Source: an uncultured Christensenellaceae bacterium (GTDB lineage: Bacteria > Bacillota > Clostridia > Christensenellales > DTU072). From it: DNA of 64,000 bases. Below, in pieces: positions 12,532 to 63,093 of the stretch (position 1 is the first letter of the stretch; the number at the start of each line of letters is the position of its first letter). The stretch is from positions 651 to 64,650 of the forward strand of contig CAYZOJ010000001.1 in the NCBI GenBank assembly GCA_964480195.1, read 5' to 3'. The notes under the pieces were generated by a model. The model saw only the letters and a list, made by a program, of their open reading frames with translations, had not been told where the DNA came from and ran no database searches. The position numbers and the translations under genes are program-made.

Positions 12532-12544
12532 TAACTCAACTCCT

Positions 12545-12765
12545 AATCCGCTTAAATCAACGGCAACGCCGTTGTTAGCCATCACGCGATAGCGTGTGGT
12601 CAATCACACGTAGTGTGTATATCATCAACGCGTAGCGTTGTATATCATCACGCGCAAGCGTGTATATCATCAATCCGAAGGAATACACACTTCGTGTGAT
12701 GACATACAGCTCCGCTGATTACATACGCCTTTCGGCGATTACATACCTATCCTTCGGATTGGATA
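12545..12765. repeat. mini-hairpin array C (type-1 units, inverted relative to array A)
   Basis: About 10 consecutive 5-6 bp stem hairpins, e.g. caacgg-caacg-ccgttg, cacgc-gata-gcgtg, cacac-gta-gtgtg, aacgc-gta-gcgtt, cacgc-gcaa-gcgtg and cacac-ttc-gtgtg. They are separated by the linker tatatcatca, which is the reverse complement of tgatgatata in array A. Confidence 0.85.
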
Positions 12766-12799: not shown

Positions 12800-12874
12800 T
12801 GGTACCCCCATGGGGACTCGAACCCCAGATTCCGCCGTGAGAGGGCGACGTCTTAACCGCTTGACCATGAGGGC
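12800..12874 (-). tRNA. tRNA-Glu (anticodon CUC), CCA encoded
   Basis: The reverse complement reads GCCCTCA TG GTC AAGCGGTTAA GAC G TCGCC CTCTCAC GGCGG AATC TGGGG TTCGAGT CCCCA TGGGGGT A CCA. It folds as a 75-nt cloverleaf with a T-loop TTCGAGT. The anticodon arm CGCCCT-CTC-ACGGCGG parallels classical tRNA-Glu. Confidence 0.88.
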
Positions 12875-25300: not shown

Positions 25301-27661
25301 GGAATCAAGACCGACAAACTGCAACGTGTTATCCGCAACGGCGTCTTCGATAACTATTTCTTCGTACGTATCGTTGTTGTATATCAGCCACAAGATCATT
25401 CCGTCATAATTGAACGTCAATCCGCTACCTTTGGAAACATAAGTCTTTTGGGTGGGTTCTTGCTTGATTTCGATACTTACGGCTTCTTTTGCGACAACTA
25501 TTACCTTGCTTTGAAGCGTGGCACCGTTATATTCTATTGTTACGATTCTTTCGCCGATAGATGTGTTGCGACTGTTATAATCGAGCATATCTTTGGTAAC
25601 TTCGACATACTCGTCTCCGCCCGCGCGACTGATTAGAAGCGCATAACCGGTAAGATCGATGTCTGTGCCTTCCGTTACGACGCCGAAATCTACGTTCTCG
25701 GAATCATAGCCACCGTCTTCGTTTTCTTTGCACAGCTCTTTTATCTCTTCGAACTCGTTGGTTACTTCTACCGTTATAAAGCACTCTTGCTCCAGTCCAT
25801 TCGTTTCGAAATAAACGCGATACGTGCCGACTTCGGTAAATTGGGTCGAGAGATCTTTGTCTTGCGGTTCGTCGGTATCGTATCCGACGCTAATCGTCCA
25901 ATCCTTTCCGAAATTGTCGGAACCCGCGTCGATATATTGAGCGTTGACTTCGCCTTCGTACGTTACTGCGAGAATGAGGTTTTCAAGGTTCAATTCTTCG
26001 CCTATGGTATATTGGATTTTTACGTCCCCGCCTAATTTGACTTCTTTGATTTTGCGAACTACAGTTACGGTAAAGGCGTTCTCGACGGTGAAACTCAAAT
26101 CGTATTCGTCGACATATGTAAGCTTTGCTGATACCGAACCTACTGCGGTATTGTCGAACTCGACGGTCGCGTCGCCTATCGGAAGATTCTCTTTTACGGC
26201 TCCACTGTTGTACGTAACGTTAATGGTGATGTCCGACGTGTCCGCCGTTCCGTTAAGGTATGCGATTACGCCTTCTTGATTGTTTAGTTCTATGTCGGTA
26301 ATTGCAAGCGCAATGACCTCGAAATCGTATTCTAAGGTTAAGTCGTTATACACAATGACCCAAGTCTGCTCGCCTGCCTCTTCGTAGCGATCTATGACCA
26401 TTCCGCCTTTCCAGTCAACGTACGCGGATATGAGATCGAAAGACTCGCCGACTTCGCCGTTGTTGTAAACGAGTGCTATTTGCCAGTCTTGAAGATTATA
26501 CTCGGTATCTTGATATACTTTGCCTTCTTCGATAACTTTTAAGCCCGTCGCTTCACGCGGGATAACGTCGATTTCAAGTTCGCCGACGGTGGCCAAACAA
26601 ACGTCGCCGTAATAGAAATTGATGTTTACCGTCTGTTTGCCCGCAAGTGTACGGTCATAACCCGAAAACGAAACTTTATCGGAAGGTATAGTGATTTCTT
26701 CACTCGAACCGTTGGTATACGTAACGGCAATCTCGAGTCCGTCTAAATCCAAGTCGAGATATTGATACTTGGGATGCGCTTCGTTTTGCTCTGCGTAATT
26801 CAAGATTTTATAAGAAGCAACGTCGCGATTGGCGATTTTGACGTTAAACTCCGTTTCGAAACCGCCGTACATGACTTTTGCGAATACGCTACTCGCAACT
26901 TGCGTGGAATCGAATTCGTACGTCAATCCCTCAAGCAGAGTGCCGTCCGCCGAGGTCATCGACATCGTGTGTGTATAGCCGTTGTTGTATTTGAGGGTAA
27001 TAATTCCGCCCGTAAGATCGAGCTCGCTGTCGCCGAGGTAGTAGACGGTTTGGTTGGGAACCGTGTGCATGTCGATACCCACAAGTTCGCGGTCTTCGAC
27101 CGTTACGTTGTACGTAGCGGAATAATCGGTGCCGTCGAGGTTGTACGTCACCTTTACTTCTTGCAAACCGAGTGTGTTTCTATCATATCCCGAACACATT
27201 TCGCGCGTAACGGGAACCGTGAGAGCGGTTCCGTCCGAGAATCCGATTACCAAATAACAATCCTCGAGATTGAGTTGTTGCTCGACAATGTAGTTGACGT
27301 TTTCATCGGGAACGATAAGATTGACCGACGCCACTTGCGGACGCATTACCGTAACTTTGAACGTAACGGTTACTCCTTCGTATGAGATCAGTATGTACTG
27401 CTCACCGAGAGTGTCGGGCGAATACGATGATACCATATCAGGCGTAACCGAAACTTTACGCTCGCTCTGGTCGACATACACTACGAGTATGCTCGCGTCG
27501 GTAAGATCGAGCTCTTCGCCTAATACGTACGAAGTTTTGGGCGAAGAATAAATTTCGATATGGTCGATTTTGGGTTCTGCGGTACAAGACACAAACGCGC
27601 ATACCGCGCACACCGTTACAATCAGCGCAATCAACGTCAATAAAAGTTTTCTGTTTTGCAT
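16301..27661 (-). CDS. giant surface lipoprotein (about 3786 aa) with bacterial Ig-like (Big_3-type) repeats and MBG (YGX-type) domains
   Basis: The ATG at 27661 lies after aaagagg, giving MQNRKLLLTLIALIVTVCAVCAFVSC (lipobox-like). In the first ~1000 aa, repeats of the form KTxYxxGExLDLTGxxIxVxYxxG...V occur many times. Mid-protein modules such as KIYGSADPVLTYTVSGIEG...GDYNIQIGTLGSDNYYITF match the MBG YGX type. The last ~900 aa are unassigned. The track start at 27733 is an upstream extension. Confidence 0.9.
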   Translation of the reverse strand: MQNRKLLLTLIALIVTVCAVCAFVSCTAEPKIDHIEIYSSPKTSYVLGEELDLTDASILVVYVDQSERKVSVTPDMVSSYSPDTLGEQYILISYEGVTVTFKVTVMRPQVASVNLIVPDENVNYIVEQQLNLEDCYLVIGFSDGTALTVPVTREMCSGYDRNTLGLQEVKVTYNLDGTDYSATYNVTVEDRELVGIDMHTVPNQTVYYLGDSELDLTGGIITLKYNNGYTHTMSMTSADGTLLEGLTYEFDSTQVASSVFAKVMYGGFETEFNVKIANRDVASYKILNYAEQNEAHPKYQYLDLDLDGLEIAVTYTNGSSEEITIPSDKVSFSGYDRTLAGKQTVNINFYYGDVCLATVGELEIDVIPREATGLKVIEEGKVYQDTEYNLQDWQIALVYNNGEVGESFDLISAYVDWKGGMVIDRYEEAGEQTWVIVYNDLTLEYDFEVIALAITDIELNNQEGVIAYLNGTADTSDITINVTYNSGAVKENLPIGDATVEFDNTAVGSVSAKLTYVDEYDLSFTVENAFTVTVVRKIKEVKLGGDVKIQYTIGEELNLENLILAVTYEGEVNAQYIDAGSDNFGKDWTISVGYDTDEPQDKDLSTQFTEVGTYRVYFETNGLEQECFITVEVTNEFEEIKELCKENEDGGYDSENVDFGVVTEGTDIDLTGYALLISRAGGDEYVEVTKDMLDYNSRNTSIGERIVTIEYNGATLQSKVIVVAKEAVSIEIKQEPTQKTYVSKGSGLTFNYDGMILWLIYNNDTYEEIVIEDAVADNTLQFVGLDSEIGEQTIQVKYNYSDEKTLDAEVKVTVVSSSVSEVSWNSGSDPTAEVSAGTRFDITSFAVKDKDNRLVRLGTLQINVKETNGNMRNAALSEYADGFIVSDYSPNSSGLQYVKLFYGTAEEKATLSEAERNARTLTVVVTVGDRKLDSVSLEANIDDAFVVIQGAPIAVSDYMLRLTFTDGTSTLIPLKSEYINVSDGNPGGYDIADLSTSDARPVTISYTYGTETAPVTATVDFRVVEKSLVKIDVNDLPKRYYIEHEEFDVSGGTIMLYYDNGTTETKRMSDAAINDASSTFNINSLKFNNEEFDGQTKAQHIEITYSYYGQKYTTSYVIYMRDRKDVSIKYSDQNDYDFVYGSVEAPSVTINGYSSYEATERTVTFGESDFTIEYIPQNIWLSVRREAGADYTTLPSDAGEYRIVVSYAGDGIHNAFEDATNILKIAKKKIYVGFAKSQSKVYGQDMPKLKMTFGNSSKEALAEPLSVFVEGDGLYSESFNTEYNKKYATTAILVDADGKEYLSEGALIVLDMFDIVCTDASGNEVYLSNDTPQGIYSLNVNNSIVGKNYEIVFERGTFNISKRPVVITPESLTYTYGQSSVSAIPFTVSAVDGEAESGLYGTDVIKGNLARENREQNSVGEYAIEVGSLITYNPNYDIRFTNEAGAKVTITKRTIYVKTDTLIKVYGEEAVVPEVRFYGNSECTDETNAFAPGDDLASLGVLTYKSLPDRYKEAGMHAVDVSIDGTGDKAENYDIVYIGGYIEVAKRPIVVTANPASKIYGSADPVLTYTVSGIEGNSASGLIVKDGVKDTLTGALGRETGENKGDYNIQIGTLGSDNYYITFISDKLTVESKSLYIKVDESALTKVYDGKKPEISEYTIYEIVDGENVDYADAGTVSKFITFSFEGMSKDAGTYPVKVKISNNNYSVAFIGDADYTYVISKRKVSITIDNYVGLPDGLEYCCSDYVFSAHISTDDLQHVYNDDGTYATDEDNRPLFDDDTVSLSRSVVRNAGTYTTRVTDITDKNYELDSENSPEITFTVKPRTVYIVIKCNSTTDENTIEREFNNQSATLTSQDYEIENTIAGESTPYFALGIYSGETAVTAKDVRYAEDGVTVVGYEIKVAENSLSSNYVVALKEAYRFKIVPRSVEIRINDRYLSKVYDGEEPSITSNMFSPAVATTGFDNSTVSFTFDRNGNDDNDNAAVGTYDVVISCSDRNFAVTTLQNYVYTIERSTINVTISSAALSKAYDGEDFSIEYAKLTMSSYYGTAPIVHNFAFGSKDAGYEFDTFKSKLENLTSEYKTLKNAIEAVSFGSGANNARNKLVEALQTLVMFGNDVGNSNLNCFTEENTTNILLAISAMQESINSAIDAIDEGELGKAETRFKNVTDKFKVVKNIVTQENSYIAFVFGAEGDNTTSQKGEYAISMYYADYNRDYKLLNSSPTAEVKEHKLKIIVDSLTVPYGTAKDGVEVPYTIWDSSNGIDVTDDKLIKSLIQGKPVIVADIDILKAGTYGVDLSGMSISNVNYSLDIGTSAKVTVGKATLTIVMNDIADESKFVYNGKISQSDIQAYVSQYTYFDVNSISEYTNDPKELEYIRMAEEYATANGLGGLSVREKLQACFGGLAGGDSVNDLKDILKGGASLRCHCYIDENGTVEIFNVDGFPAGDYDWTVNGYTADNYYIKVLPGTLTVAKAKLYAMTGVSGILNKTYGDQSISFYYGSVDTRNILVYADDDTDKANGISLSDVVWAHTSLSEIDPMDAYTNAGDDSYNVSFSSNGYYMENYEIVFDDSYEVQVVRATLTLTMKSTVAGAGNVITAKYMATPANYIYSYEGFKNDDTAESLGLRIGDENAPVISFMDNGSYFGVGLHTMYGDSVDISKATANVQNYEIVVQDFSYKVEARKIYVWLEDVDKVLTPLTGGKIEVAPYVISITETKSVTVGEETIYVPTRGNIVSGNYGKSNFRFEAEMTDEEKLDTALSSALNAYVQSALSKIAFLSKTVIESGKEGKNIEYYKGSELYAHSITKVGYTQDDVNGDYVTMKLGGMSFATKEYNVVLDYKEFKVDIQREVRSVIAEWTEKLLAEDLSNMEEVKKKLNVAVGMYMMVNGSLESGFIVDGSNGSIVIEGLDSCAVGKTNYITVKYDYQCKLFDLMSNLNYEVSYATTIGSQTQEVRVDDARQNTYDTTKVDGLSSYIPTRFYANKTSTVSDPEISGLTYGKLNNATGDSTFVSTKNAYDFDGIRMRVRLAETEGENKFTVVFAGDVSSNGYALAMTFNRSDVSNAVVTLYSVSGGKLTAMSTANYAMDCSKLFDGYSHDLRIKFNKELITVIASIDGSSGAIKDISAIDGITSARAYLTGADSDARKFYISSTMKYALGSLTLTEQGLYEHTGTFIDIAQNANGVISVDTSEAFFKTNASLLNNFFGLPSKLGSAFTTEYYVDGEKAEEPANVILGRGSHMIELALYYNGALLDTDYTIVTVTRSVTSLAFDVSGGTGEIVTAGSKLRMYTPLVNSSFDGDSDLVTSDAATARSYMLYATDTESSTGNGMYAPSYYSHSFTLDRIASYAQLTGNAIYEAGTNVLYYNLFAEGGYSTNNINGLKTATSDYALSIATNPNVKGARLRFERHQNSQEVYDKTETYDYYYDVYLDVRCIEKDATEVTTVTTQLYSNVKGSALGVGFEVRAYYDKLGAMGNGSAKIRIRQIGTTTWQDVDLASIGDIGDAQPFVMLTGNATRVTNNKLLFVENDHAYNDYLIDDEYTMYNGSAVTLKAGSTLKLADGVGTARYSAYNNIEFEFGVESANGTVGMALAESAVYDEYNPNLFYGAYLDYDLEANKLVFKFRYGSVYSLAQEFKLSESNSAVGTHKITVDLNMDEMNLKNYVGGDSELGTNLVRNGVTLTDSKGAKLYYHKIDVTIDGESAVFYLPHYADMNGWYMANGSVYGSGDANKYSDIDINDAPATFISIYNYNSVTAPEATSLTVYKYVTAIADSGAYTQRALKNKTPLI

Positions 27662-27704: not shown

Positions 27705-27733
27705 ATTTTAACATACGCGCGCGTACTTGGCAA
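27705..27733 (-). promoter_or_regulatory. putative promoter of the giant lipoprotein gene
   Basis: On the minus strand, TTGCCA (27733-27728) is followed by a 17-nt spacer and TAAAAT (27710-27705). The resulting 5' UTR contains the hairpin gcgcgc-gtgagg-gcgcgc just before the SD. Confidence 0.4.
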
Positions 27734-27807: not shown

Positions 27808-28268
27808 CCGCAAAGCGGTGCGCAAGCAAAGCTTGCGCTATACAATCCTTGCGGATTGATGATATACAACGCCTACGCGTTGATGATATACACACTACGT
27901 GTGATGATATACACGCTATCGCGTGATTGACCACAACGGCTGTGCCGTTGATTAAGGTATTTAGGAGCGGAATGACAATCCCTCCGCGCTACGCGCTATA
28001 CAATCCTTACAGATTGATGATATACAACGCCTACGCGTTGATGATATACACACTACGTGTGATGATATACACACTGCGTGTGATGATATACACGCTATCG
28101 CGTGATTGACCACAACGGCACAGCCGTAGACTGAGGGATTGTCATATATATTCTTAAATACCACAACTTTCACGAAGTGAAAATTTCACCTGCCGTAGGC
28201 AGATTTCACCCGCGAAGCGGATTTCACCTTGCGCAAGCAAGATTTCACCGGCGAAAGTCTCTTTCGCC
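27808..28268. repeat. mini-hairpin array A (type-1 units x2 blocks, a core inverted repeat, then type-2 units)
   Basis: About 19 hairpins. The type-1 linker tgatgatataca occurs 7 times, with stems caacgc/gcgttg, cacac/gtgtg, cacgc/gcgtg and caacgg/ccgttg. A block of about 158 bp starting gcgctatacaatcc occurs twice in tandem (27835 and 27993). Type-2 units (28168-28268) use the linker (a/g)atttcacc with stems tttcac-gaa-gtgaaa, cctgcc-gta-ggcag, ccgc-gaa-gcgg, cttgc-gcaa-gcaag and ggcgaaag-tct-ctttcgcc. Confidence 0.9.
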
Positions 28269-28272
28269 CTGT

Positions 28273-28466
28273 GGCGCATTGTATAGCTCTCGGCGGGATA
28301 TTTAGTCCTATAATGCGAAAAAATCGGAGCGGAAGCTGTACAAAGGTACGCGGGCGGAGATTTGGGCGCCCGTAAGGGCTTAACAAGCCCTTTATTTCGC
28401 ATTAGAGGGCTGAAGAGCCCGTCGAGAGCGTGTAGACAAATAAAACCCGAAAAATTAAAAATAGGC
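28273..28466. ncRNA. unclassified structured module, copy 1 (candidate RNA or ssDNA element; strand undetermined)
   Basis: Colinear with 51048-51250 in the same orientation. The closing helix is gctctcggcggg (28286-28297) with cccgtcgagagc (28418-28429). The inner helix aatgcgaaa (28312-28320) with tttcgcatt (28395-28403) shows three compensatory pair changes in copy 2. Nested hairpins are gtac-aaag-gtac, cgggcg-N10-cgcccg and aagggctt-aac-aagccctt. Confidence 0.5.
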
Positions 28467-28483
28467 ATCCGCTATATCTGTTT

Positions 28484-28520
28484 ATACAAAGAAAAAAGCT
28501 GTCCGAGCGTCGAACAGCTT
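28484..28520 (-). terminator. rho-independent terminator of the IS200/RAYT-like gene
   Basis: aagctgt (28496-28502) pairs with acagctt (28514-28520), with an inner cga/tcg extension. On the minus strand it is followed by TTTTTTCTTTGT. Confidence 0.75.
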
Positions 28521-28558
28521 ATCTTCTTACTTCAAGTTAAATGCCTATTTTTCGGGTT

Positions 28559-29869
28559 TTATTTGTCGTAACACATTGAGGTGAGCGTCATTATTCGGTT
28601 GGGATCTTCAAAGGTGTTGATTATACCGAACTGCTTGATTACGAACTCGACGCTCGTATTTCTCTTTTCCGCAACGTATCTGATAAGCTCGACAAGGAAA
28701 TTATCGTTGAAATACACGACTTGTCCGCCGGCAACCGCACAATACGCAAATCCCATCATCGAGAAAATCTGGTCGATGCTGTATCCGAGTCTGTCGGAAA
28801 GCAAAAGTATGGTGTCGCGCATAAGCTTGTTGCCTTCGGGTACGATTTGCAACGCTTCTACGTTCTGGTCGTACGTTTGGCGCATATTGACGGTAAGTTC
28901 CGCCATAACCTTTACGAGAGTAACATACTTGTCGGTGCGGGTTATCGCAAGCTTCGAGCATATAGCATCGTAACTGAATCCACCTCTCTCGTTGATTTCC
29001 GCAATAATCCTCGGCATAAGGTTGTTGGGAATGGCTCTCTTGGTGTAGCAACCATAGTCGATGAGCACGTTTTCGATGGTCGCACGGAACTTGTCGATTT
29101 CGGGAAGATTAAGGAAGTCTTCCGGTATCGTACGCAAGCCGTCGTCATACGCTTCCGCCAAAAGCTTTTCGGCTTTAGCAACGCCCATCGTTTCATACAA
29201 ACTGTCACGGCACGCGAGCGAACCAGCGTCGGAACACGCCTTGCCGTAAGAGCTGAACGGATACGCCCAACTGTGCGTTAAAAAGTTCGCGTACGGCTGA
29301 CTTTCGATAATGGCTACGCTTTCGGCTAAATCTTTATGTTCCTTAACTTTCTTTACGCGAAGTCTGCTCTTGAATACAAAACCCGCCGTCTGGAAGTTCT
29401 CGTTAAAGAACTTGGCGTAAAGCGTGTTTGCCGTATCGAAGAATCTACGGTAGCTTACGGGCGTTTGGTCATATGACGCGATAAGGAAATATGCCCTATT
29501 GTTGATGACGGAGTATGCAACTATATCCACGGGGAACGATCCGACTGCCGTCATTATACATTTGAGATAATACATCTTTGCGCCCGGGGTGGGGAATACT
29601 ATACATTTGGGTCTGCCGTCTACCGCTACACGATAGAAATCCGGTTTGACGGTATTGTACGCGTTGACGCGACGATCCGCCCTACGTTGGTCAGACGGAA
29701 GTCTGCCGATGGGGGCTGCGTTGATTATTGCGCGGGTCGGCTTACCGTGTACAAATCCTGCTTGAATAGTGTTCGCCTCTACGGGTCCCACGTTTGTAGG
29801 ATTGGTTACGCGGATAGTCTCCTGCGGAGTGTTACACGAGCATCCGTTGTGATTGTGTTCGTTTGCCAT
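28559..29869 (-). CDS. IS200/RAYT-like (COG1943, Y1 HUH transposase fold) homolog with degenerate catalytic motifs and an HTH-like C-terminal region
   Basis: The core aligns by eye with Firmicutes IS200-like/REP-associated tyrosine transposases. Examples are DFYRVAVDG vs GIYHVMLRG, VAYSVINNRAYFLIA vs YAYCLMxNHxHLLI, GFVFKSRLRVKKV vs GHLFQDRFKSExV, AIIESQPYANF vs RYIHQNPVKAG, and YPFSSYG vs YKWSSY. HUH is replaced by R-A-Y and the helix Tyr is absent. 436 aa. Confidence 0.65.
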   Translation of the reverse strand: MANEHNHNGCSCNTPQETIRVTNPTNVGPVEANTIQAGFVHGKPTRAIINAAPIGRLPSDQRRADRRVNAYNTVKPDFYRVAVDGRPKCIVFPTPGAKMYYLKCIMTAVGSFPVDIVAYSVINNRAYFLIASYDQTPVSYRRFFDTANTLYAKFFNENFQTAGFVFKSRLRVKKVKEHKDLAESVAIIESQPYANFLTHSWAYPFSSYGKACSDAGSLACRDSLYETMGVAKAEKLLAEAYDDGLRTIPEDFLNLPEIDKFRATIENVLIDYGCYTKRAIPNNLMPRIIAEINERGGFSYDAICSKLAITRTDKYVTLVKVMAELTVNMRQTYDQNVEALQIVPEGNKLMRDTILLLSDRLGYSIDQIFSMMGFAYCAVAGGQVVYFNDNFLVELIRYVAEKRNTSVEFVIKQFGIINTFEDPNRIMTLTSMCYDK

Positions 29870-50640: not shown

Positions 50641-50675
50641 TATTAAAAGTGAATCTCAAAAAAATATGCGAGAAG

Positions 50676-50930
50676 GCTTAGTGCTAAGATGGGCTGACGG
50701 AATGATGTTTGCCTTACGGCAATGAGGCTTGCGCAATGATGTTGCCTTCGGCAATACTGCTTGCGCAATGAAATCTTGCTTTGCAAGATGAAATCCGCAT
50801 TCGCGGGTGAAATCTGCCTACGGCAGGTGAAATATTCGCTTCGCGAATGTTGTGGTATTTAGGAGCAGAATGACAATCCCTCAGTCTACGCCGTAAACGG
50901 CGTATCCAGCTCCCTTTACACAAAGGAGCC
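50676..50930. repeat. mini-hairpin array B (type-2 units and core motif, inverted relative to array A)
   Basis: Hairpins include ttgcc-ttac-ggcaa, ttgcc-ttc-ggcaa, tcttgc-ttt-gcaaga, ccgc-attc-gcgg, ctgcc-tac-ggcag, attcgc-ttc-gcgaat and cgccg-taaa-cggcg. The linker (g/a)tgaaat is the reverse complement of atttca(c/t) in array A. The core motif ttgtggtatttaggagcagaatgacaatccctcagtctacg lies at 50849-50889. Confidence 0.85.
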
Positions 50931-51047: not shown

Positions 51048-51250
51048 GGCGCATTGTGTAGCTCTCGGTGGGATATTTAGTCATATAACGCAAGAAAATC
51101 CGAGCGGAAGCAGTACAAGCGTACGCGGGCGAGGATTTGGGCGCCCGTAAGGGCTTAACAAGCCCTTTATCTTGCGTTAGAGGGCTGAAGAGCACAGCGA
51201 GAGCGTATATAGTGGGGAGCAAGTAAAACCCGAAAAATTAAAAATAGGCT
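51048..51250. ncRNA. unclassified structured module, copy 2
   Basis: Same order and orientation as 28273-28466. The closing helix is gctctcggtggg (51061-51072) with cacagcgagagc (51193-51204). The inner helix is aacgcaaga (51087-51095) with tcttgcgtt (51170-51178). The three nested hairpins are conserved. Confidence 0.5.
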
Positions 51251-51269
51251 ATCCGCTAACGTTCTCCGT

Positions 51270-51305
51270 ATAAGAAAAATAGACTAACGTGTTGCCGTCA
51301 GCCTA
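51270..51305 (-). terminator. rho-independent terminator of the 771-aa gene
   Basis: On the minus strand, TAGGCTGAC-ggcaacac-GTTAGTCTA forms a 9-bp stem with two G.U pairs valid only in the minus sense. It is followed by TTTTTCTTAT. Confidence 0.6.
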
Positions 51306-51341
51306 TTACTTTTCTAATCATACCCGCCTATTTTTCGGGTT

Positions 51342-53657
51342 TTACTTGCTCTTCACGATAAAAATAAGACCTGCGTGCGGAGCAAGTTTGATTGCCTTGC
51401 CGAGATTAAACGGACGTCCCTTTTGCATATTCCTTATCTCGGGACAACGGACTTTTTTGCCGACTGTCGTGAACCCGAGTTTGTTTTCGACGCCTATTTC
51501 GAACGTCTTTTTCTCTTCGGAATCGTTATACAAAACGGCTATCATATCTTTGCCGTTGATATACGACGTGCAATAGACGGACGCGTTATCCGATCTCACG
51601 GGATTGGTCTTGTCCCAATAGCCCTTTAACTCGGCATTTCCTATGTCGAAATCGCGGAATACGCGGTTAAGATCCTCTATCGCCTCGGTCGTTTCTTCAT
51701 CCTCACCGACACACGGGATTATTCCCGTCAGCAATCCCCTGCATATGCCTATCGGCGAGAGCGAATCGACGGTGAAGCCGTACGGCACACCGCTTACGCC
51801 TATCAATGTGGAATCGAGATCACGATCTCCGTATCCTTTTACTGCAACCTTAGAAACGAACGGCAATACGTCCGCATAAGTCGAAAGAGTATCTATGCGA
51901 CAGTCGGAATCCCCGTATCTGTTCGACAACACAAGTTCGGTAAATCCGCCCCCTCTTTTGCGGGTCATACATTTTTGTATTCTCTCCGCAACCGTAGGGG
52001 TAAGCGACGGATTGTGCATCGAAACGAAGTCGATATCCGCAACGCCTATAAGCCTCTTTAACGACTCGACGTAATAGTTATCGAACCTTGACGCCGTGGC
52101 TATGTGCCCGAACTCGCCAAAGTCCGTACGGAAACGGTCGAACATTATTTCGCCGTCCAACGACATTAGCGCGTAATACTCCGCGACATCGGATCCGAGC
52201 GTGTTGATACCGTATTCCAAACCGCACGCAATATCACGCTTATGGGCTACCAAAGTGAGCTTTTTGAGAGCCTTAACATCGTCTTGGACACTCTTTACGT
52301 GAGCGTTGCCCGCAGAAGGACGACCTACCGACAACGACGTCGTGCAGTAGCGCGAAGCGCGTGCCGACTCATCTTGGAAACCGCCTTGACCGAGTGTATA
52401 AATCCTGTTCCCTGCCGAAGCTCTGAGATCCAACGGACGGAACGGAGTAAGGTGTATATCGAAGCAGAACGACACCTTGTCGCCCTTTGCAAAAATCATC
52501 TTGCCTGTATACGCCGAGAACAACGCGCCTTCGTCTATTCTGCGAACGGTTACTCCGCCTTTGCCGTAATTTGCCCAAGTGGTCTTAGGCGGACGGGCGC
52601 CCGTTTCCAACGGGGCTCCGTATACGGGGAAGTCGCAGTTGTCGCGGTTTTCTCTAAGTCTTATACGGGCACCGCAGTTTACGTTGCCGATATAAAGATA
52701 GTCCCCGCCGACTTCCGTCCATTTGTAATCGAGGTCTTTGAGTCTACCCGGAGCCATACCCATTCCGACACCGTAATCGGCAGACGCAAAATACGCGTTC
52801 AGGCGTATGTCTTCGACAATGGCGTCTTCAAACGCGTCTATCGTAACGGTATAATGCAAAACGCCCTCGTAATGCGCTTCTGCGTTTACGGTTATATGCA
52901 ACTTATCGGATCTGCCGTCGGAAACTATTAACGCGGAATCGGGCTTATCGGTAATCTTTATACGGTTATACTTAAACTTTTGCCCTTCCGCGATAAACTC
53001 CATGGGACGGAAAAACAGCGACGCCGTTACCTCGTCCGTAAGCGCGTTGGATTCGGAATAATAGCTCTCGACGTCATTTATAAAGCCGTCGCCCGTAAAA
53101 CTCACGCGTTTTCCCGTAAACGTTACGGAGTTCTTGTCCGCCGAAACCGCGTAGAAACCCGGGACGAGTTTCTTATCCATATATTCGGTGGAATTGAGCC
53201 ATTTTAGCCTTGCAAGCGTGCTTCCGTCGTCCGTACCCTCGTTAAAAACGAGTTTGTCGGTAAGCTTGAATACGAGTTCCACTTTTTCGCCGTCAACGTA
53301 AACGTCCGTGCGATATTCGTCGATATCCGCTCTCGAGAGGTCTACGCCTATCAACAGAACGGTTATCGCGCCCGCGTTTACTCTGACGGGACGGGTAAAT
53401 TTTTTACCGTCCGCGCCGACGCCTTCGGAATTAAAGCAAGTTACGGCTTTATCGAAATTCTTGTTTGCACCTCTGAGCGGTCCCGTTTTGACCTCGACAA
53501 GCGCGTCAAAGCCCGTCAAAACAGCCAGCTGAACGACGTAATACTCGTGCCTTGACGGCGTATATTCGAACGTACGTCCGTCGTTTAACCCGTCAAGCAC
53601 GGAAAGATCGTAACGGTCGCTAATTACCGTTTTTCGGTCAATCGAATAAATTTTCAT
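51342..53657 (-). CDS. uncharacterised 771-aa protein, possibly a glycoside-hydrolase-like enzyme (operonic with GH2)
   Basis: Long ORF with SD ggagaa and no signal peptide. It sits 12 nt downstream of the GH2 gene. I cannot assign a family from sequence alone; the GH123/DUF4091-like idea is only a guess. Confidence 0.6.
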   Translation of the reverse strand: MKIYSIDRKTVISDRYDLSVLDGLNDGRTFEYTPSRHEYYVVQLAVLTGFDALVEVKTGPLRGANKNFDKAVTCFNSEGVGADGKKFTRPVRVNAGAITVLLIGVDLSRADIDEYRTDVYVDGEKVELVFKLTDKLVFNEGTDDGSTLARLKWLNSTEYMDKKLVPGFYAVSADKNSVTFTGKRVSFTGDGFINDVESYYSESNALTDEVTASLFFRPMEFIAEGQKFKYNRIKITDKPDSALIVSDGRSDKLHITVNAEAHYEGVLHYTVTIDAFEDAIVEDIRLNAYFASADYGVGMGMAPGRLKDLDYKWTEVGGDYLYIGNVNCGARIRLRENRDNCDFPVYGAPLETGARPPKTTWANYGKGGVTVRRIDEGALFSAYTGKMIFAKGDKVSFCFDIHLTPFRPLDLRASAGNRIYTLGQGGFQDESARASRYCTTSLSVGRPSAGNAHVKSVQDDVKALKKLTLVAHKRDIACGLEYGINTLGSDVAEYYALMSLDGEIMFDRFRTDFGEFGHIATASRFDNYYVESLKRLIGVADIDFVSMHNPSLTPTVAERIQKCMTRKRGGGFTELVLSNRYGDSDCRIDTLSTYADVLPFVSKVAVKGYGDRDLDSTLIGVSGVPYGFTVDSLSPIGICRGLLTGIIPCVGEDEETTEAIEDLNRVFRDFDIGNAELKGYWDKTNPVRSDNASVYCTSYINGKDMIAVLYNDSEEKKTFEIGVENKLGFTTVGKKVRCPEIRNMQKGRPFNLGKAIKLAPHAGLIFIVKSK

Positions 53658-56785: not shown

Positions 56786-58321
56786 TTATTTGCTTACGCC
56801 TATCGCGTTATTTTTTGTTTGAATGCCTTGTACTTTGGACGCGTCGGTTTCGATGACAGGTTCGTTTTTGACTTCGCACTTCTCGTACTCGGTTCTCGAA
56901 CCCACTCCTATCAATCCGCCGACGTTGACCGTGCCCAACGAGTATATCTTGATATCTCCGTCGCTTGTAAAACCGCGTACCGCCATACGGTAACCGGTCG
57001 TGTTTTCGGTGCCTCCCGCGACTCCGCCGACGCTTACGTTGACTCGGGTTATGTTTACGTCTATGTCGCCGTCGAACGAGGAATTCGCCACTCCGCGGTT
57101 TTCGAGCCTTCCGAACAATCCGCCTATGTAGCAATAATCGAAATCGTTACCGCCGACAATGTTCACATCTATTACGGCAGAGCTATATAACTTGGCGGTT
57201 TCGTCTATATCGTAAACGCCGACCGTTTCGCGATACTCGGCGGTGTCCGCTCCGACGATTCCGCCTACGTAAAGCGCGCCGAAATCCGCAATCTCTTCCG
57301 ACGAAACGTTAACAGTTATCTCGGAAAAACTGCGACTTTCTCTGACCGTTACGTTTTTGACGCCACCCGCAATACCGCCGACTTTGATGTCGCCTCCCCC
57401 CGAAACGGTTATGTTCGTTTCGGAAACAAGTCCTTTACATATGCGTCCCGACGCAACACTCTTAACGCTCGAAGTCATATATCCTACGATACCGCCCGCA
57501 TAAAGTTGCGCGTCGGAAACAAGCTCAGACTTTACGGTAAAGGCGCCCGACGTTAAGCAATTTTCGATTACGCTGACTTCCGCCCTGTTTGCTATAACTC
57601 CGACATTGCAGGCGCTTTTCGCTACCGCTCCGCCGGTTACTCCGCTTACGGTCAAGCCCTCCACGACGGCTCCGCGCAGTTCGCCGAACAAACCGCCCTT
57701 GCCAATGTCGAGTGCCGTTATTTTGTATCCGTTACCGTAAAACTCTCCCGAGAAAGTCGGATATCTGCGCGCCTCTCCCGAAAAATCCAAGTCGTTCGAC
57801 AGCACGTATACGCCGTTTGCGGACATCGCGAAAAACGAGTCGGCGTCGGTAACGTATCCGTCGACCTTTTTGACTACGATTTTGACTTCCGCAATAACGA
57901 CGTTGCCTTTGTTATACGCAACCTCAAACGTGGCTTCGTCACCCTCTTCCGCTCCGCTTGTTTTGACAATGAAATCTCGGGTTAACTCTATCGACTCGGT
58001 TCCGAGTTTTTGGGTTATAGTAAAGTTTTCGTACGGGATATTACCGCAAAACGACGGTTCGATTTGGTACTGTGTTTTCGAAGAGTTGACGGCGTAGGTG
58101 TAATATCCTTTGTATTTTACGCCCAAAGCGTATGTGGGACCGTCCGGGGTTTCATCGCCCAAAAACACCGCAAGCAAAACGGCGCAAACGATTAAAATGA
58201 TTACAACGCACAACGAAACGCACAAAATGATTTTTTTGCGTTTGCTCATAGGTTGTTTTTCCTCGTTCTTCTTTACCGAAACGGATTTGACGGAGGAATC
58301 GTTTTTTACGTTCTTAGGCAT
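56786..58321 (-). CDS. GLUG-motif protein with an N-terminal TM anchor (511 aa)
   Basis: KRKKIILCVSLCVVIILIVCAVLLAVFLG anchor. Repeated GLUG-type motifs (AGGIVGYMTS, VGGIAGGVKN, VGGIVGADTA, IGGLFGRLEN, VGGVAGGTEN, VGGLIGVGS). Confidence 0.85.
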   Translation of the reverse strand: MPKNVKNDSSVKSVSVKKNEEKQPMSKRKKIILCVSLCVVIILIVCAVLLAVFLGDETPDGPTYALGVKYKGYYTYAVNSSKTQYQIEPSFCGNIPYENFTITQKLGTESIELTRDFIVKTSGAEEGDEATFEVAYNKGNVVIAEVKIVVKKVDGYVTDADSFFAMSANGVYVLSNDLDFSGEARRYPTFSGEFYGNGYKITALDIGKGGLFGELRGAVVEGLTVSGVTGGAVAKSACNVGVIANRAEVSVIENCLTSGAFTVKSELVSDAQLYAGGIVGYMTSSVKSVASGRICKGLVSETNITVSGGGDIKVGGIAGGVKNVTVRESRSFSEITVNVSSEEIADFGALYVGGIVGADTAEYRETVGVYDIDETAKLYSSAVIDVNIVGGNDFDYCYIGGLFGRLENRGVANSSFDGDIDVNITRVNVSVGGVAGGTENTTGYRMAVRGFTSDGDIKIYSLGTVNVGGLIGVGSRTEYEKCEVKNEPVIETDASKVQGIQTKNNAIGVSK

Positions 58322-58532: not shown

Positions 58533-60026
58533 TTATTTATCGCCGAACACGTCGCGCGGGTCGATACGCTCTTCCGACAACTCGTCTTTTTGAGCCCTCT
58601 GTTCCGCTTTACGCTTTTTGCGCTTTTTGATTTTGACGACTACTACGACGATTATCGTTACGGGTATGACAACTATAACGACAAGTCCGATAATAAGCGC
58701 GACTATTATGAACGTGTATAGTCCGTTGTCGACTTCCTCGGGCGACTCGGACGCGCATACGGAGAACTTAAGTTCGCCGTTCGGGAGCCCGTTCCCGACA
58801 TATTCGTAATATCCGTCGTGTTTCTCGAAACCCTCGAGCGACGGCTCCGACAGGTAATACGACGTGTTTATTCGAATATTAATATCCCCGAAAGACGCCC
58901 ACGTTTTGGCGGGACTCAGGTAATAATTGAACGTGTAAACACTCGGCTCATACCCGTAATCGACGTCGGGAAACAGAGGTGCGGTAACTTCGTTTACAAT
59001 AGTCTGTCCCGAAGCAAAAACGAGTTCGTACTCATACCAACACAGTAAGTCGTCGTCAATCTTGAAGTCGTACGTGCTAAGGAGCTTTTCTTTTCCCGCG
59101 CCGTCCGCGTATGAGTCGTCGAGATTTGCGACGACCGCGTTATACCAGTCGACCTCCGATACGCAAGAGTCTTCCGGTCTAAACTCCATCACCATATCGA
59201 GAAAAGTTATTGTTTCTTTGGAAACGACGTCTATCGACCCTGTGCACTTTTTACTTTCGCTAAAAGCCATCGTATCGTAATACTCGGCGGTTTTAGCGAA
59301 GTTCGCGTTATCCTCTCCTATAAAATAGACTGTGAGTTTTTCTTGATAAGAAGTTTCATCCGACTTTTCCGCCGTCAGCCAAAACGAAATGTGAGTGTAT
59401 TCGTCGTCGCCGTATTCGAATCCCGACGCGTCACTCACCGTTATGCCGTTATATTCGGTCAGCGCAAAACGCACGGCTCTACCCGTCGCGTGCACGTCGT
59501 AAACGTATTTGTATACGACCATATCCGTTTTCCAAAAATCGTTTTGCACATACTCGTCGCACAAAAGTTTTGCGTCTTCGGCGTAATCGAACTCGTCCGT
59601 CCAACGCTGTTTATAGGTATGTCTGACTGTTTTTAAAATATCCGCGCCGTCCGCGGTTATGCGCATATAATTCTGCTCGGCGTCTTCGGGAAGATCGCTA
59701 ACAAACCCTATCGGGAACAAAAGACCAACCTTTGCCGTATAATCGGCGGGGTTACGGAAGGTGTATTTTGCGGTTACCCTGCCTCCGCAATCGTATTGCA
59801 GATAATTTTCCGTTTCCGTTTCGATATCAAAAGTAAGCTCCTCGCTGTCAACGACTATCGGGCAGTCTTCCGTCGTAACGATTACTCCGCTCGAATCCAC
59901 TCCGTCGAAATACCTCATCGCGGAATTTGCCGACGCGGGTGTCCCGCCTAAGCTCGTTAGCGAAAACGCCGTTACGCATACCGCAAACAGCAACGCAAAA
60001 ATGCCGACTTTAATTTTATTCTTCAT
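58533..60026 (-). CDS. uncharacterised type I membrane protein, paralog 1 of 3
   Basis: Signal peptide MKNKIKVGIFALLFAVCVTAFSLTSLGGTPASA. Conserved blocks CPIVVDSEELTFDI, YDCGG(R/K)VTAKY(T/A)FRNPADYT, CWYEY(E/D)L, NEVTAPL(F/Y)PDV and YYLSPAKTWASFG. C-terminal TM helix plus a Lys/Arg-rich tail. Confidence 0.85.
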   Translation of the reverse strand: MKNKIKVGIFALLFAVCVTAFSLTSLGGTPASANSAMRYFDGVDSSGVIVTTEDCPIVVDSEELTFDIETETENYLQYDCGGRVTAKYTFRNPADYTAKVGLLFPIGFVSDLPEDAEQNYMRITADGADILKTVRHTYKQRWTDEFDYAEDAKLLCDEYVQNDFWKTDMVVYKYVYDVHATGRAVRFALTEYNGITVSDASGFEYGDDEYTHISFWLTAEKSDETSYQEKLTVYFIGEDNANFAKTAEYYDTMAFSESKKCTGSIDVVSKETITFLDMVMEFRPEDSCVSEVDWYNAVVANLDDSYADGAGKEKLLSTYDFKIDDDLLCWYEYELVFASGQTIVNEVTAPLFPDVDYGYEPSVYTFNYYLSPAKTWASFGDINIRINTSYYLSEPSLEGFEKHDGYYEYVGNGLPNGELKFSVCASESPEEVDNGLYTFIIVALIIGLVVIVVIPVTIIVVVVVKIKKRKKRKAEQRAQKDELSEERIDPRDVFGDK

Positions 60027-60100
60027 AGAGCCTCCTTTATGCGTAACAACCTATATTCGTATGGCATATTACGTACGATGCCTGTTCCCCACCGGGCATG

Positions 60101-61549
60101 TCAATTCGTTTTCTTTCTGCGTTTAGATCTTTTAGTAAGCAATATTGCAATTATAGTTAAAGCCACGGCTGTCGTCAAAATGATAACACCGACTATAATT
60201 ATCCAAGTTAACGAAGTATGCCCTGTGTATTTAGGATAATAAAGTGCACATGTGGTAAACTTAAGTTCACAATCCGGGAGCCCTTTACCTACATATTCAT
60301 AGTATCCGTCATATTTTTTGAAGCCTTCGAGTGAAGGCTCTTTCACATAATGCGATGTGTTAATTCTTATTGTCAAATCCCCGAAAGACGCCCACGTCTT
60401 AGCGGGGCTTAAGTAATAATTGAATGTGTAAGCTTTAGGATCCGAACCGGTATATACATCCGGATAGAGCGGGGCAGTAACTTCGTTTATTATCGTTTCA
60501 CCGGGCGCAAAACTAAGGTCGTATTCGTACCAGCATATAAGGTCGGAACCCAAGTCCATATAGTCATCGAAAGTCCAATCCGAGGGCTCGGTTTCCCACT
60601 TCTTTTTATCACAACGTTTAGCGACCATTACGTTATACAGATCGACATCCGTGATATCCAAATACGCCGAGCGCTCGGCTTTTAATTCCTTAATCATATC
60701 AAAATATGTGATTTCGTCTTTTGTTGCGATATATACAGAACCGGTACACTCTTCTTCTAAAGACGTATCGTAATATGTAACCGCAGAGCCTAAATTACCG
60801 TTTTCAATATCGACATCATAATAATATCCAAAAGACTCTTCTATATCCACTCCGATAAAATATATCGTAACTCTCTTATAGTAGGTCGTTTCCGATTCCG
60901 CATCCAAACTAAACGTCAGTTTTCTATTGCTTGAATACCCGCAACTCGTCGCGTTGCTAACAGTCATTCCGCCATATCGGCTCAAATCCAACCGCGCGAC
61001 TTGACCGGTTGAATGTACGTCGCAAATATATTTATGAACGCTAAGATCTGCGCTATATATGCCTTGTTTTATACAGTCATCTCTTAAAAGTTGCATGTCT
61101 TTTGCGTAATCGAAATCTTCTCTGTCTTTGTGCTTATAGGTGTAACGCGGGGTCATTTTTACATCCACGCCGTTTGCTGTCACACTACTATAATCACGTC
61201 CTTTATCGTTGGCTTTTTTAGACACAAAACCTGCAGAGAACAATAAACCGACATTGACGGTATAGTCGGCGGGATTGCGGAACGTATATTTAGCCGTTAC
61301 CTTGCCTCCGCAATCGTATTGCCAAAAACGCTCATCATCCGTTTCGATATCGAAAGTAAGCATCTCACTGTCGACAACTATCGGGCACTCTTCCGTCGTA
61401 ATGATTAGACCGCTCGAATTAACTCCGCTATAATACGTCCGCGCGGAATTGGCTGACGCGGGTGCCCCGCCTAAGCTCGTTAGCGAAAACGCCGTTACGC
61501 ATACCGCAAACAGCAACGCAAAAATGCCGACTTTAATTTTATTCTTCAT
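60101..61549 (-). CDS. uncharacterised type I membrane protein, paralog 2 of 3
   Basis: Same architecture as paralog 1. The first 97 nt, including the SD, are identical to paralog 1. Confidence 0.85.
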   Translation of the reverse strand: MKNKIKVGIFALLFAVCVTAFSLTSLGGAPASANSARTYYSGVNSSGLIITTEECPIVVDSEMLTFDIETDDERFWQYDCGGKVTAKYTFRNPADYTVNVGLLFSAGFVSKKANDKGRDYSSVTANGVDVKMTPRYTYKHKDREDFDYAKDMQLLRDDCIKQGIYSADLSVHKYICDVHSTGQVARLDLSRYGGMTVSNATSCGYSSNRKLTFSLDAESETTYYKRVTIYFIGVDIEESFGYYYDVDIENGNLGSAVTYYDTSLEEECTGSVYIATKDEITYFDMIKELKAERSAYLDITDVDLYNVMVAKRCDKKKWETEPSDWTFDDYMDLGSDLICWYEYDLSFAPGETIINEVTAPLYPDVYTGSDPKAYTFNYYLSPAKTWASFGDLTIRINTSHYVKEPSLEGFKKYDGYYEYVGKGLPDCELKFTTCALYYPKYTGHTSLTWIIIVGVIILTTAVALTIIAILLTKRSKRRKKTN

Positions 61550-61608
61550 AGAGCCTCCTTTAAGTTAGTAACCGTCCGCAAAAGGGTTTCTATCGTCGTA
61601 CGCCACTT

Positions 61609-63093
61609 CTATTGCCGTAAGTTAATCAATATGATGACAAGTATCACCACAAAAGCAACAACCGCAAAAACAATAGCGACGGTTTCCACCTTCGGCATCT
61701 GTATATTTGACGTAATCGTGTTTGTTGTTGCTGTTGTTTTTTGCGTGGGCTTCTTTGCTGTTACGGTAAACTTAAGTTCGCCGTTCGGGAGCCCGTTTCC
61801 GACATATTCATAGTACCCGTCATACTTTTCAAACCCGTCTAACGATGGTTTGATCATATATAACGACGTGTTTATCGTTATCTTTAACGAGCCAAATGAC
61901 TTCCACGTCTTTGCGGGACTTAAAAAGTAGTTGTACGTATATTGGTTATCCTCGTGTGCATTCGTTTTATAGTTATAATCTACATCGGGATAGAGCGGTG
62001 CGGTAACTTCGTTTATTATCGTTTCGCCTGGCGCAAAACTAAGGTCGTATTCGTACCAGCATATAAGGTCGGAACCTAAGTCCATATAGTCATCGAAAGT
62101 CCAATTATCGCGACGCCATGCCGACTTACTATTGTTGTGTTTTGCTACTATCGCGTTATGTAGGTCTATGTCCGAAATGCCCGAGATTGCGGAATAATCA
62201 GACATCTCCTTAATCATATCGAAATACGTTATCCGGTCTTGGGAAACAATGCGTACTGAGCCCGTACGCTCTTTTTCAAAAGACATCGTATCGTAATACC
62301 TTACCGCCGAGCCCAAATTGTCGTTATCAATATCGACATCACTATACTTGTACATATCGTTTCCGATGTCCGCTCCGATAAAGTATACGGTAACTCTTTT
62401 GTAGTAAGCCGACTTAGATTTATCGGCGGTATCGCTTTCTTCGTCTAGTTCAAACGTCAATACCCCGCCGTATTGTTCTTCGCTTTTAGTGGCATTGCCC
62501 ACGGCTATTCCGTCGTAATTGCTTAAATAAAATCTTACCGCCCGTCCTGTCGAATGTACGTCACAGACATATTTATAAACTTCGAGGTCTTGGTCATACT
62601 TGCCCCTCTCTATGCACTCGTCACTTAAAAGTTTTACGTCTTCGGAGTAATTGAAATTGTAATTACCGTCATTTACTTTATAACTATAACGAATACGTTT
62701 GTCTATACTATCACCGTTAACCGTTATATTCATATACTCTTTTGTGGCTTCGTCCGGCTCATCGCACACAAAACCTATAGGAAACAAAAGTCCGACATCG
62801 GCTGTATAATCGGCGGGGTTGCGGAACGCATATTTAGCCGTCACCTTGCCTCCGCAATCGTATTGGTTAAACTTCTCCTTATCTATTTGGATATCGAAGG
62901 TAAGCTCCTCGCTGTCGACAACAATAGGACAATCCTCTGTCGTGAGCAACACTCCGCTCGAGTCCACACCCTCAAAATACGTCATCGCGGAATTGGCTGA
63001 CGCGGGTGCCCCGCCTAAGCTCGTTAGCGAAAACGCCGTTACGCATATCGCAAACAACAACGCAAAAGCCACTGCTTCAATTTTTCTTTTCAT
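61609..63093 (-). CDS. uncharacterised type I membrane protein, paralog 3 of 3
   Basis: Same architecture as the other two. It shares a near-identical block of about 118 nt with paralog 2. Confidence 0.85.
   Translation of the reverse strand: MKRKIEAVAFALLFAICVTAFSLTSLGGAPASANSAMTYFEGVDSSGVLLTTEDCPIVVDSEELTFDIQIDKEKFNQYDCGGKVTAKYAFRNPADYTADVGLLFPIGFVCDEPDEATKEYMNITVNGDSIDKRIRYSYKVNDGNYNFNYSEDVKLLSDECIERGKYDQDLEVYKYVCDVHSTGRAVRFYLSNYDGIAVGNATKSEEQYGGVLTFELDEESDTADKSKSAYYKRVTVYFIGADIGNDMYKYSDVDIDNDNLGSAVRYYDTMSFEKERTGSVRIVSQDRITYFDMIKEMSDYSAISGISDIDLHNAIVAKHNNSKSAWRRDNWTFDDYMDLGSDLICWYEYDLSFAPGETIINEVTAPLYPDVDYNYKTNAHEDNQYTYNYFLSPAKTWKSFGSLKITINTSLYMIKPSLDGFEKYDGYYEYVGNGLPNGELKFTVTAKKPTQKTTATTNTITSNIQMPKVETVAIVFAVVAFVVILVIILINLRQ

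Follow-up and report, generated by a model that had tools for sequence, protein, structure and literature searches.

The pneumococcal SPRITE repeat, which is located at 3' ends of coding sequences (CDSs), has AAAA/TTTT ends and an 18-base-pair (bp) duplex with a U-rich tract after it; no transposase is known for it, and it is thought to have been co-opted as a terminator (PMC3049150). Correia-type MITEs (miniature transposable elements with inverted repeats) carry 26-bp terminal repeats and form hairpins which are cleaved by RNase III, and transcribed hairpins of Correia elements and MITEs are either cut by this enzyme or alter mRNA stability or termination (PMC2649163, PMC10969869). Moreover, template switching homogenises and expands the arms of inverted repeats and introduces multi-base compensatory changes in one step (PMC8794818, PMC5941160, PMC13100816, PMC7202029). 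Here we describe two long inverted repeats, at locus A and locus B, in a stretch of 64,000 nucleotides (nt) from an uncultured Christensenellaceae bacterium of the Clostridia (contig CAYZOJ010000001.1 of assembly GCA_964480195.1), which is called the window throughout. Each of them encloses an intrinsic terminator and runs over the stop codon and the last codons of the gene in front of it. Judged by design, SPRITE and the Correia-type MITEs are the closest analogues, and the arrangement has the appearance of an unusual variant among the intergenic repeats of other bacteria, not that of a new kind of system. As far as can be read from the sequences, what is unusual is that the terminator is nested in a long helix, that this helix overlaps stop and last codons, and that its pairing has co-evolved in a locus- and allele-specific manner. 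It is our preferred reading, at a probability of roughly 0.4, that the arms are the outer arms of a palindromic terminator cassette, which may have been matched to each other and pushed into the gene end by template switching and which may act as a back-up bidirectional terminator.

Both loci are built in the same order. On the minus strand, the gene is followed by the arm, the terminator, a TAGCGGAT box, the partner arm, a structured module, hairpin arrays, a sigma-70-like promoter and a giant gene, and because of this order the non-coding island lies upstream of the giant-gene promoters and not in their 5' untranslated regions. The features are the following:

28273-28434, plus strand: locus A copy of the 162-nt structured module, which abuts the arm and is 88% identical to 51048-51209
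28435-28468, minus strand: module-side arm of locus A, which pairs with 28541-28567 and has a 6-nt bulge; its outer positions 28435-28440 match the native gene end
28467-28474, minus strand: TAGCGGAT box of locus A between terminator and module-side arm, present also in locus B and in the related locus L110
28486-28520, minus strand: inner intrinsic terminator of locus A (hairpin 28520-28496), an 11-bp stem AAGCTGTTCG..CGGACAGCTT followed by TTTTTTCTTT
28541-28567, minus strand: gene-side arm of locus A, which reads GAC AAA TAA AACCCGAAAAATAGGCAT and comprises the last two codons and the stop of the upstream gene
28559-29869, minus strand: gene of a 436-amino-acid hypothetical protein, upstream gene of locus A
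51048-51209, plus strand: second copy of the 162-nt module, locus B
51208-51249, minus strand: module-side arm of locus B with the same 6-nt bulge
51250-51258, minus strand: TAGCGGATA box of locus B, conserved
51270-51307, minus strand: inner intrinsic terminator of locus B (hairpin 51307-51278), 12 pairs followed by TTTTTCTTAT
51326-51360, minus strand: gene-side arm of locus B, printed here out of frame as (TAT CGT GAA) GAG CAA GTA AAACCCGAAAAATAGGC; in frame, the gene ends ATC GTG AAG AGC AAG TAA
51342-53657, minus strand: GH123 glycosidase gene, upstream gene of locus B

A preliminary description of the window had reported the two inverted repeats, and both are present where it placed them, with the terminator enclosed and the stop codon TAA within the arm at either locus (28559-28561 and 51342-51344, both minus strand). 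The arms given there are the perfect cores; the real arms are longer, contain the conserved 6-nt bulge, and continue beyond the cores as an interrupted, weaker pairing that reaches ~15 nt into the coding ends. At locus A, the perfect core amounts to 21 bp, with GACAAATAAAACCCGAAAAAT (28435-28455) being complementary to ATTTTTCGGGTTTTATTTGTC (28547-28567) and 91 nt between the arms, and a second block, AAAAATAGGCAT/ATGCCTATTTTT (28457-28468 / 28541-28552), extends it to a 27-bp helix in which 6 nt (TTAAAA on the plus strand) bulge out of the module-side arm. The perfect core of locus B has 22 bp (51217-51238 / 51330-51351), and its repeat comprises 31 nt at 90% (51208-51238 / 51330-51360), or 26 bp when the same bulge is allowed. 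The core shared by the arm pairs is TAAAACCC/GGGTTTTA.

In the 64-kb window, no other perfect inverted repeat with a gap of <=150 nt reaches the length of these two, and in 20 block-shuffles the longest perfect inverted repeat was typically 11-13 nt and 17 nt in one. Of 283 long open reading frame (ORF) ends surveyed in the window and in 12 related loci, only those at A, at B and at the homologous site of L110 have a stop codon that is overlapped by a perfect repeat of >=10 bp. A chance origin of the two repeats is excluded, and with 0 of ~280 other ORF ends it was also rejected that the feature is general to the terminators of the genome. Judged by the definition of an intrinsic terminator, a short GC-containing stem-loop with a loop of 3-8 nt and a U-run right behind it, both inner hairpins are of this type; a terminator scan called them on the minus strand only. 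At locus B, two of its 12 pairs are G:U on the minus strand and hence A:C mismatches on the plus strand. The outer helix has a CCCG/CGGG clamp followed by TTTTATTTG / TTTTACTTG on both strands, and its "loop" is a branched interior of ~70 nt, which lies outside the canonical definition and the rules of the scan.

The part of the arm that derives from coding sequence differs between the loci, GACAAA at A and GAGCAAG at B, and as had been claimed before, each is complementary to its own partner arm. Between A and B the arms co-vary as AAATAA/TTATTT and AAGTAA/TTACTT, in which the last codon has changed from A:T to G:C, and they differ further by one extra G:C pair. A third complete copy is found at L110 (86-87% DNA identity), which represents locus B without module or arrays. 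Within its intergenic region of 194 nt, an arm, the TAGCGGATA box and a terminator like that of locus A are retained, as is a partner arm, which overlaps the -35 region of the giant-gene promoter, and TGAAAAGTA[AGTA]AATCCCG pairs with CGGGATTTACTTTTCA across the terminator in a stem predicted by a minimum-free-energy fold. The gene end of L110 reads AAA AGT, synonymous to AAG AGC in the window, and each is complementary to its own partner arm. Window and L110 co-vary as AAAACCCG/CGGGTTTT and AAATCCCG/CGGGATTT, with an A:T to T:A change beside the CCCG clamp and two synonymous codon changes. Of the 53 core pairs, 27 in A and 26 in B, all are Watson-Crick pairs and none is G:U. Furthermore, the arms are identical between A and B at 45 of 45 positions, against 88% identity of the adjoining module (P ~0.003 under equal divergence), and the interior is only ~50% identical between copies.

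At locus B, the outer part of the module-side arm (51208-51223) repeats the last five GH123 codons imperfectly and in inverted orientation, and the two mismatches of the locus B extension are G:U on the plus strand. The module-side flank reads ATA GTG GGG AGC AAG, the gene end of the window ATC GTG AAG AGC AAG, and that of a species with 78% DNA identity ATA GTA GAG AGC AAG. Compared in this way, the outer partner arm of locus B resembles the gene end in a slightly older state, copied in inverted orientation. The KSK* tail encoded at locus B is common to all arm-bearing species and differs from that of the arm-less outgroup.

Matched arms could also be kept by selection for pairing and not by a mutation bias, as in the selected read-through stem of the preliminary description. 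Read-through of the inner terminator would then let the downstream arm pair with the stop region of the minus-strand mRNA, and the 26-27 bp duplex would be the primary functional unit, be it as RNase III processing site, as seal of the 3' end or as translation-sensitive second terminator that the ribosome melts at the stop. What stands of this proposal is that the architecture is kept in three copies with compensatory changes that include synonymous positions. The 6-nt bulge conserved in A and B and the arms that are more conserved than the module agree with it, and so do the G:U pairs of the inner terminator on the minus strand, which show that this strand is transcribed. The size of RNase III substrates matches the length of such a stem. 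In this respect the duplex would resemble the Correia elements, which are an example of such substrates (PMC2649163). However, a stem shaped by RNA pairing does not account for the lack of G:U among the 53 core pairs, nor for an A:T to T:A transversion without wobble intermediate; its downstream arm lies beyond an apparently strong terminator, and no other terminator in ~190 kb of related sequence is clamped in this way, hence it is not a general solution. As the primary explanation we consider the selected stem unlikely. Since the cores are purely Watson-Crick and the transversion has occurred in both arms, copying from arm to arm at the DNA level is favoured over purely RNA-level selection, and the arm identity of 45/45 against a module divergence of 12% as well as the older-looking flank copy of locus B point in the same direction.

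The informative related loci came from protein-anchored look-ups, and external DNA scans were nearly empty. A scan of genome contigs for the arm gave 51 hits, which are chance matches except for locus L007, and a scan of JGI metagenomes for the arm pair with a gap of 80-110 nt gave 34 hits, all of them unrelated or of low complexity. Scans of viral contigs found nothing relevant, and BLAST against phage and plasmid collections gave no match. Among the related loci, the arm TAAAACCCGAAAAATAGGC follows the stop of three unrelated genes, namely the 436-amino-acid gene, the GH123 gene and an alcohol dehydrogenase gene (L007); the interior of the latter copy is 91% identical to that of locus B. A variant arm, TAAATCCCGAAAACAAGCAGG, is present at the ends of GH123 and AraC-like genes in the species that is 78% DNA-identical to the window. 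On the gene strand, the arm motif of the family is GTAAA(A/T)CCCGAAAA, and five gene ends, belonging to four genes, have an arm that begins at TAA, in four of the five in frame. The earlier suggestion of AA(A/G)TAA gene ends does not hold throughout: TCA precedes TAA in the alcohol dehydrogenase gene, and in the AraC-like case the reading frame misses the TAA and continues into the arm. Short-read contigs from eight independent assemblies break off 11-80 nt past the arm, which is expected at repeats or strong hairpins. A species-specific concerted evolution of the arm types was weakened as an idea by the co-occurrence of two arm types in the samples of one project.

In more distant relatives the synteny is kept and the element is absent, with only stop, terminator and promoter within 140-360 nt. 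Across these relatives, the orthologous protein is 65-79% identical, with 68-79% DNA identity; the proteins are 79% and 67% identical for the element-less locus A orthologues (L052, L055-64) and 65% identical for that of locus B (L109). At strain level, the loci L111 and L112 are 98.9% identical over 3.8 kb, encode an identical 436-amino-acid protein and share the end TAC GAC AAR TAA, and from the first base after the stop their DNA is wholly different: one strain has the arm, and in the other a related unit, TCTCGCATATTTTTTTGAGATTTAC, is present as an inverted copy. By this comparison, the intergenic region before the giant gene at locus A is a hot spot of strain-level replacement. Because the arm-less allele ends with the same YDK*, this end is native at locus A, and an element-derived stop and C-terminus, as considered in the preliminary description, can be rejected there. 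Of its proposed footprint of an element that acts by foldback, the repeated and polymorphic element is supported, the creation of the locus A gene end is not, and the foldback mechanism survives only as template switching during replication. Taken from these loci, the repeat belongs to a family of intergenic units of uncultured Clostridia which is lineage-specific and polymorphic and whose members start at or on the stops of at least four different genes.

The same distribution can be read as that of a mobile element which targets stop regions, either an arm-pair MITE with TA duplication or the whole module island, whose guide-like, flank-complementary segment would act by foldback, hairpin-primed insertion or RNA/DNA-guided targeting. 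Such an element would account for the arm starting at TAA in five gene ends from four genes with four in frame, for the presence/absence polymorphism and for the flank-matching segment inside the inserted island, between arm and module, and TA..TA ends would fit a target duplication of TA. The preliminary description stated that the repeat is not a direct target-site duplication; the flanks are inverted and not direct copies, only the palindromic TA is readable as a duplication, and nothing of the kind extends past this ambiguous TA. No transposase, recombinase, integrase, reverse transcriptase or nuclease is encoded in the 64-kb window, which is an ordinary chromosomal stretch of uncultured Clostridia with MurB, WhiA, UvrC, sugar-utilisation genes and two giant surface-protein genes. 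Moreover, the GH123 arm and terminator exist without the island in L110, and the arm-less allele of locus A is not a simple empty site, as its downstream DNA is entirely different. Excision of the putative MITE would leave perfect palindromes over the coding end, so that the puzzle is only moved. We regard mobility of this type as very unlikely. We find it highly unlikely, too, that the flank-matching segment is a functional, locus-adapted "address" on a mobile non-coding island of module and hairpin arrays, in which RNA or single-stranded DNA of the island would pair with the stop and 3' untranslated region of the host gene across the terminator and direct insertion at gene ends or control read-through or antisense silencing. 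If this were true, it would be a guide-bearing element without protein genes in Clostridia.

Integron attC sites came into question as well, since they share with the cassette an imperfect palindrome right after an ORF, an outer repeat that includes the stop (..TAAAAC / GTTTTA..), an asymmetric bulge and a variable centre, and the 133 bp of the cassette are within the attC range. This identity was rejected: of the 7 positions of RYYYAAC/GTTRRRY, GTAAAAC / GTTTTAC match 5, neither an integrase in the 64 kb nor a cassette array was seen, and the genes upstream are core genes of the chromosome which are kept in synteny.

The 162-nt module folds into a long closing stem with four internal hairpins and has 4 compensatory pairs between its two copies. 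Its predicted folding energy is -68 kcal/mol on the plus and -51 kcal/mol on the minus strand, and for the whole 300-nt unit the values are -133 and -121 kcal/mol. The G:U pairs of the module are valid on the plus strand only, and the outer helix begins 0-5 nt past its closing stem and is followed by a plus-strand U-tract. All this would suit a plus-strand non-coding RNA that starts with the module, with the inverted repeat as its 3' hairpin or terminator domain; its end would lie antisense to the final codons of the convergent gene, in a segment that would be masked by the module-side arm. That both wobbles of the locus B extension are plus-strand wobbles also speaks for it. Within the window, a module RNA that ends in this way, as proposed in the preliminary description, is therefore possible. 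It does not explain why the repeat exists: since L110 has the repeat without the module, the repeat is independent of it, and the idea that it exists to terminate a module RNA was rejected. In addition, A:C mismatches disturb the inner hairpin of locus B when it is read on the plus strand, no sigma-70 promoter was found or conserved in or beside arms or module on either strand, and upstream of the module there is no conserved sequence on the plus strand. Rfam gave no match on repeat or module at gathering and permissive thresholds (E<=5 for the module); the sole hit on the hairpin is a spurious plant microRNA precursor (26 bits against a gathering score of 211), which reflects the long hairpin. 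A 21-mer of the module had 0 matches in JGI metagenomes, and the module is likewise absent from viral contigs and from the phage and plasmid collections. As origin of the repeat, a plus-strand RNA seems to us quite unlikely.

Inverted repeats of 21-31 bp which flank a unidirectional terminator upstream of giant surface-protein genes, and assemblies that break at or near the arms, might also indicate an invertible switch. A recombinase would flip the ~75-bp segment between the arms and thereby reverse the terminator and tune read-through to the giant gene, for which the cwpV switch of Clostridioides difficile is a named precedent. However, all four readable alleles (A, B, L007 and L110) have the terminator in one orientation, the segment is very short for recombinase-mediated inversion, a recombinase gene is missing from the 64 kb, and the giant genes have promoters of their own downstream of the island. 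Of all readings considered here, we hold this one to be the least probable.

The palindromic terminator cassette that we prefer has the following anatomy on the gene strand. The stop lies inside GTAAA(A/T)CCCGAAAAA.., and after a spacer of ~20 nt the predicted rho-independent terminator follows, then TTTTTCTTAT..TAGCGGATA and the partner arm ..TTTTTCGGG(T/A)TTTA(C/T). In a few related uncultured Clostridia, several genes have such units at their 3' ends, and the units are exchanged or rearranged up to the stop; that the variable DNA stops at the stop codon is probably due to the limit which selection on the protein sets there. During replication, the nascent strand would fold on the existing repeat and briefly copy the other arm, as in quasi-palindrome correction or template-switch mutation, by which the arms would be homogenised and the palindrome lengthened outwards. 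Inside the gene, only synonymous or tolerated changes would survive. When transcribed, the arms would close a helix of 26-27 bp whose base is the CCCG/CGGG clamp with A-tract and U-tract (TTTTATTTG / TTTTACTTG) on both strands. It may serve as back-up bidirectional terminator or as insulator between the upstream operon and the non-coding island with the giant-gene promoter, and would be long enough for an RNase III substrate. Some constraint on the structure is indicated by the conservation of the 6-nt bulge and the strict conservation of the arms, and a U-rich tract stands directly after CGGG on both strands. Constraint and clamp with A- and U-tracts together make the bidirectional terminator or insulator the most economical proposal. 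This role and the template-switch mechanism are inferred, whereas the sequences show the anatomy, the status as a repeat family, the polymorphism, the co-variation and the independence from the module.

Several points weigh against this reading. Neither a transposase or recombinase nor a target-site duplication was found in the window, and for this reason mobility of the units is inferred from their distribution alone. The bulge is conserved in A and B, although frequent correction between the arms should erase or copy it. Since the spacers between arms and inner hairpin lack complementarity, the palindrome is not a plain outgrowth of the terminator. In the locus B extension, both mismatches would agree with a plus-strand RNA, as they are G:U pairs there. 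A helix around a branched interior of 70 nt does not correspond to a canonical intrinsic terminator, and transcription of the downstream arm on the gene strand would be rare if the inner terminator is efficient. Finally, only three complete copies (A, B and L110), all from one genus-level group, are readable, and the partner arms of five other gene-end copies lie past contig ends.

With SPRITE, the proposed cassette shares that both are small AT-rich Firmicute repeats near CDS 3' ends with AAAA...TTTT ends and a long duplex plus U-rich tract, and without recognisable transposase or target duplication, which is a resemblance of design only; a relationship in sequence would not be expected. Unlike SPRITE, its duplex brackets a second, ordinary terminator and an interior of ~70 nt, it overlaps stop and last codons, its pairing extension is locus-specific and its copy number is apparently low. 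Like the Correia/CREE, RUP and ERIC elements, which are 100-160 bp long, intergenic and strain-variable with ~26-bp terminal inverted repeats and possible TA ends, it has terminal inverted repeats of 26-27 bp, several copies (at the 436-amino-acid, GH123, alcohol dehydrogenase and AraC-like gene ends) and polymorphic alleles (L111/L112, and L110 compared with the window). It differs from MITEs in that there is no clear target-site duplication, no cognate insertion sequence in the window and only ~50% identity of the interior between copies, and its complementarity enters unique coding flank, which MITE terminal repeats do not. The mosaic of short palindromic units in both orientations (Gut-1-type arrays, GAUGAUAUACA arrays and TTTAC-ending units), which cluster after gene ends and draw on a limited set of modules, is reminiscent of REP/BIME elements; however, lineage and sequences are others, no RAYT-type gene was seen in the window, and the pairing here is of much longer range. 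Quasi-palindrome correction would account for the Watson-Crick arms, the double-arm changes including transversions and the outward growth into the flanks, but it is a mutational process, deduced here from the arms, and not a functional system, and the conserved bulge is not explained by it alone. Common to bidirectional intrinsic terminators and the cassette are a GC-clamped stem between A-tract and U-tract, the hairpin with U-run on both strands, and an A-tract that overlaps an A-rich gene end (Lys codon, TAA and AA), whereas the helix of the cassette encloses a complete terminator with ~70 nt and pairs G/C codon positions beyond the tracts.

The islands contain further repeats. Island A has a bona fide full-length match to the Gut-1 RNA (28178-28250, minus strand; RF01706, 67 bits), and island B has weaker Gut-1-like arrays on the opposite strand (50734-50850, plus strand). 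To our knowledge, human-gut metagenomes are the only source of this family, and a literature search for it gave only the original description from 2010. A 124-nt array block is common to both islands (28125-28247 and 50769-50890, 89.5% identity) and is reversed relative to the module, and the UNCG-type loops co-orient with the GUGAAAU spacers. Arrays of short variable hairpins with the constant spacer GAUGAUAUACA, which are of Gut-1-like design with a different spacer, occupy 27835-28140 and 12540-12760; two 83-nt copies are in island A and a third array is beside a tRNA gene (12803-12874, minus strand). Island A has two more perfect inverted repeats, of 15 bp (27936-27950/28113-28127) and 13 bp (27972-27984/28133-28145), with arms ~150-160 nt apart that bracket one hairpin array. 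A motif family TATTTTT(TT)-[CGGG|GAGA]-[A/T]TTTAC occurs in the window at 50657 (minus), 51231 (minus) and 51337 (plus), and elsewhere in L110 (12359 and 12376), L065 (59 and 84) and L111 (3816, minus). It is inverted at gene ends, where the stop TAA is inside GTAAA, and forms direct repeats just 5' of promoters, overlapping the -35 region in L110. Such a motif may serve the binding of a protein or recombination.

As to the neighbouring genes, the ORF of the giant gene for a protein of 3810 amino acids was listed with a TTG start at 27733, which lies inside its own predicted promoter (TTGCCA 27733-27728 .. TAAAAT 27710-27705), and the real start is probably the ATG at 27661, which is preceded by a putative ribosome-binding site AAAGAGG. 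Three tandem paralogous genes for proteins of ~480-500 amino acids with 72-77% nucleotide identity in blocks are located at 58533-63093, and the gene next to them that was searched against Pfam (56786-58321, the only one) had no match.

Altogether, the feature is real and statistically solid, and from its sequence and distribution it would best be filed with the terminator-type palindromic intergenic repeats. In practical terms, such repeats break short-read assemblies at gene ends, and stems that co-vary through template switching may be mistaken for selected RNA structure in covariation-based RNA discovery. If the preferred reading is true, a palindromic intergenic repeat would have been recruited as a nested bidirectional terminator exactly on stop codons, and template switching would keep the long stem perfect, push it into coding sequence and constrain the synonymous sites of gene ends. 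The two loci would then also be an example of mosaic, strain-variable non-coding islands, made up of Gut-1-type hairpin arrays and the 162-nt structured module, before the giant surface-protein genes of uncultured gut Clostridia.

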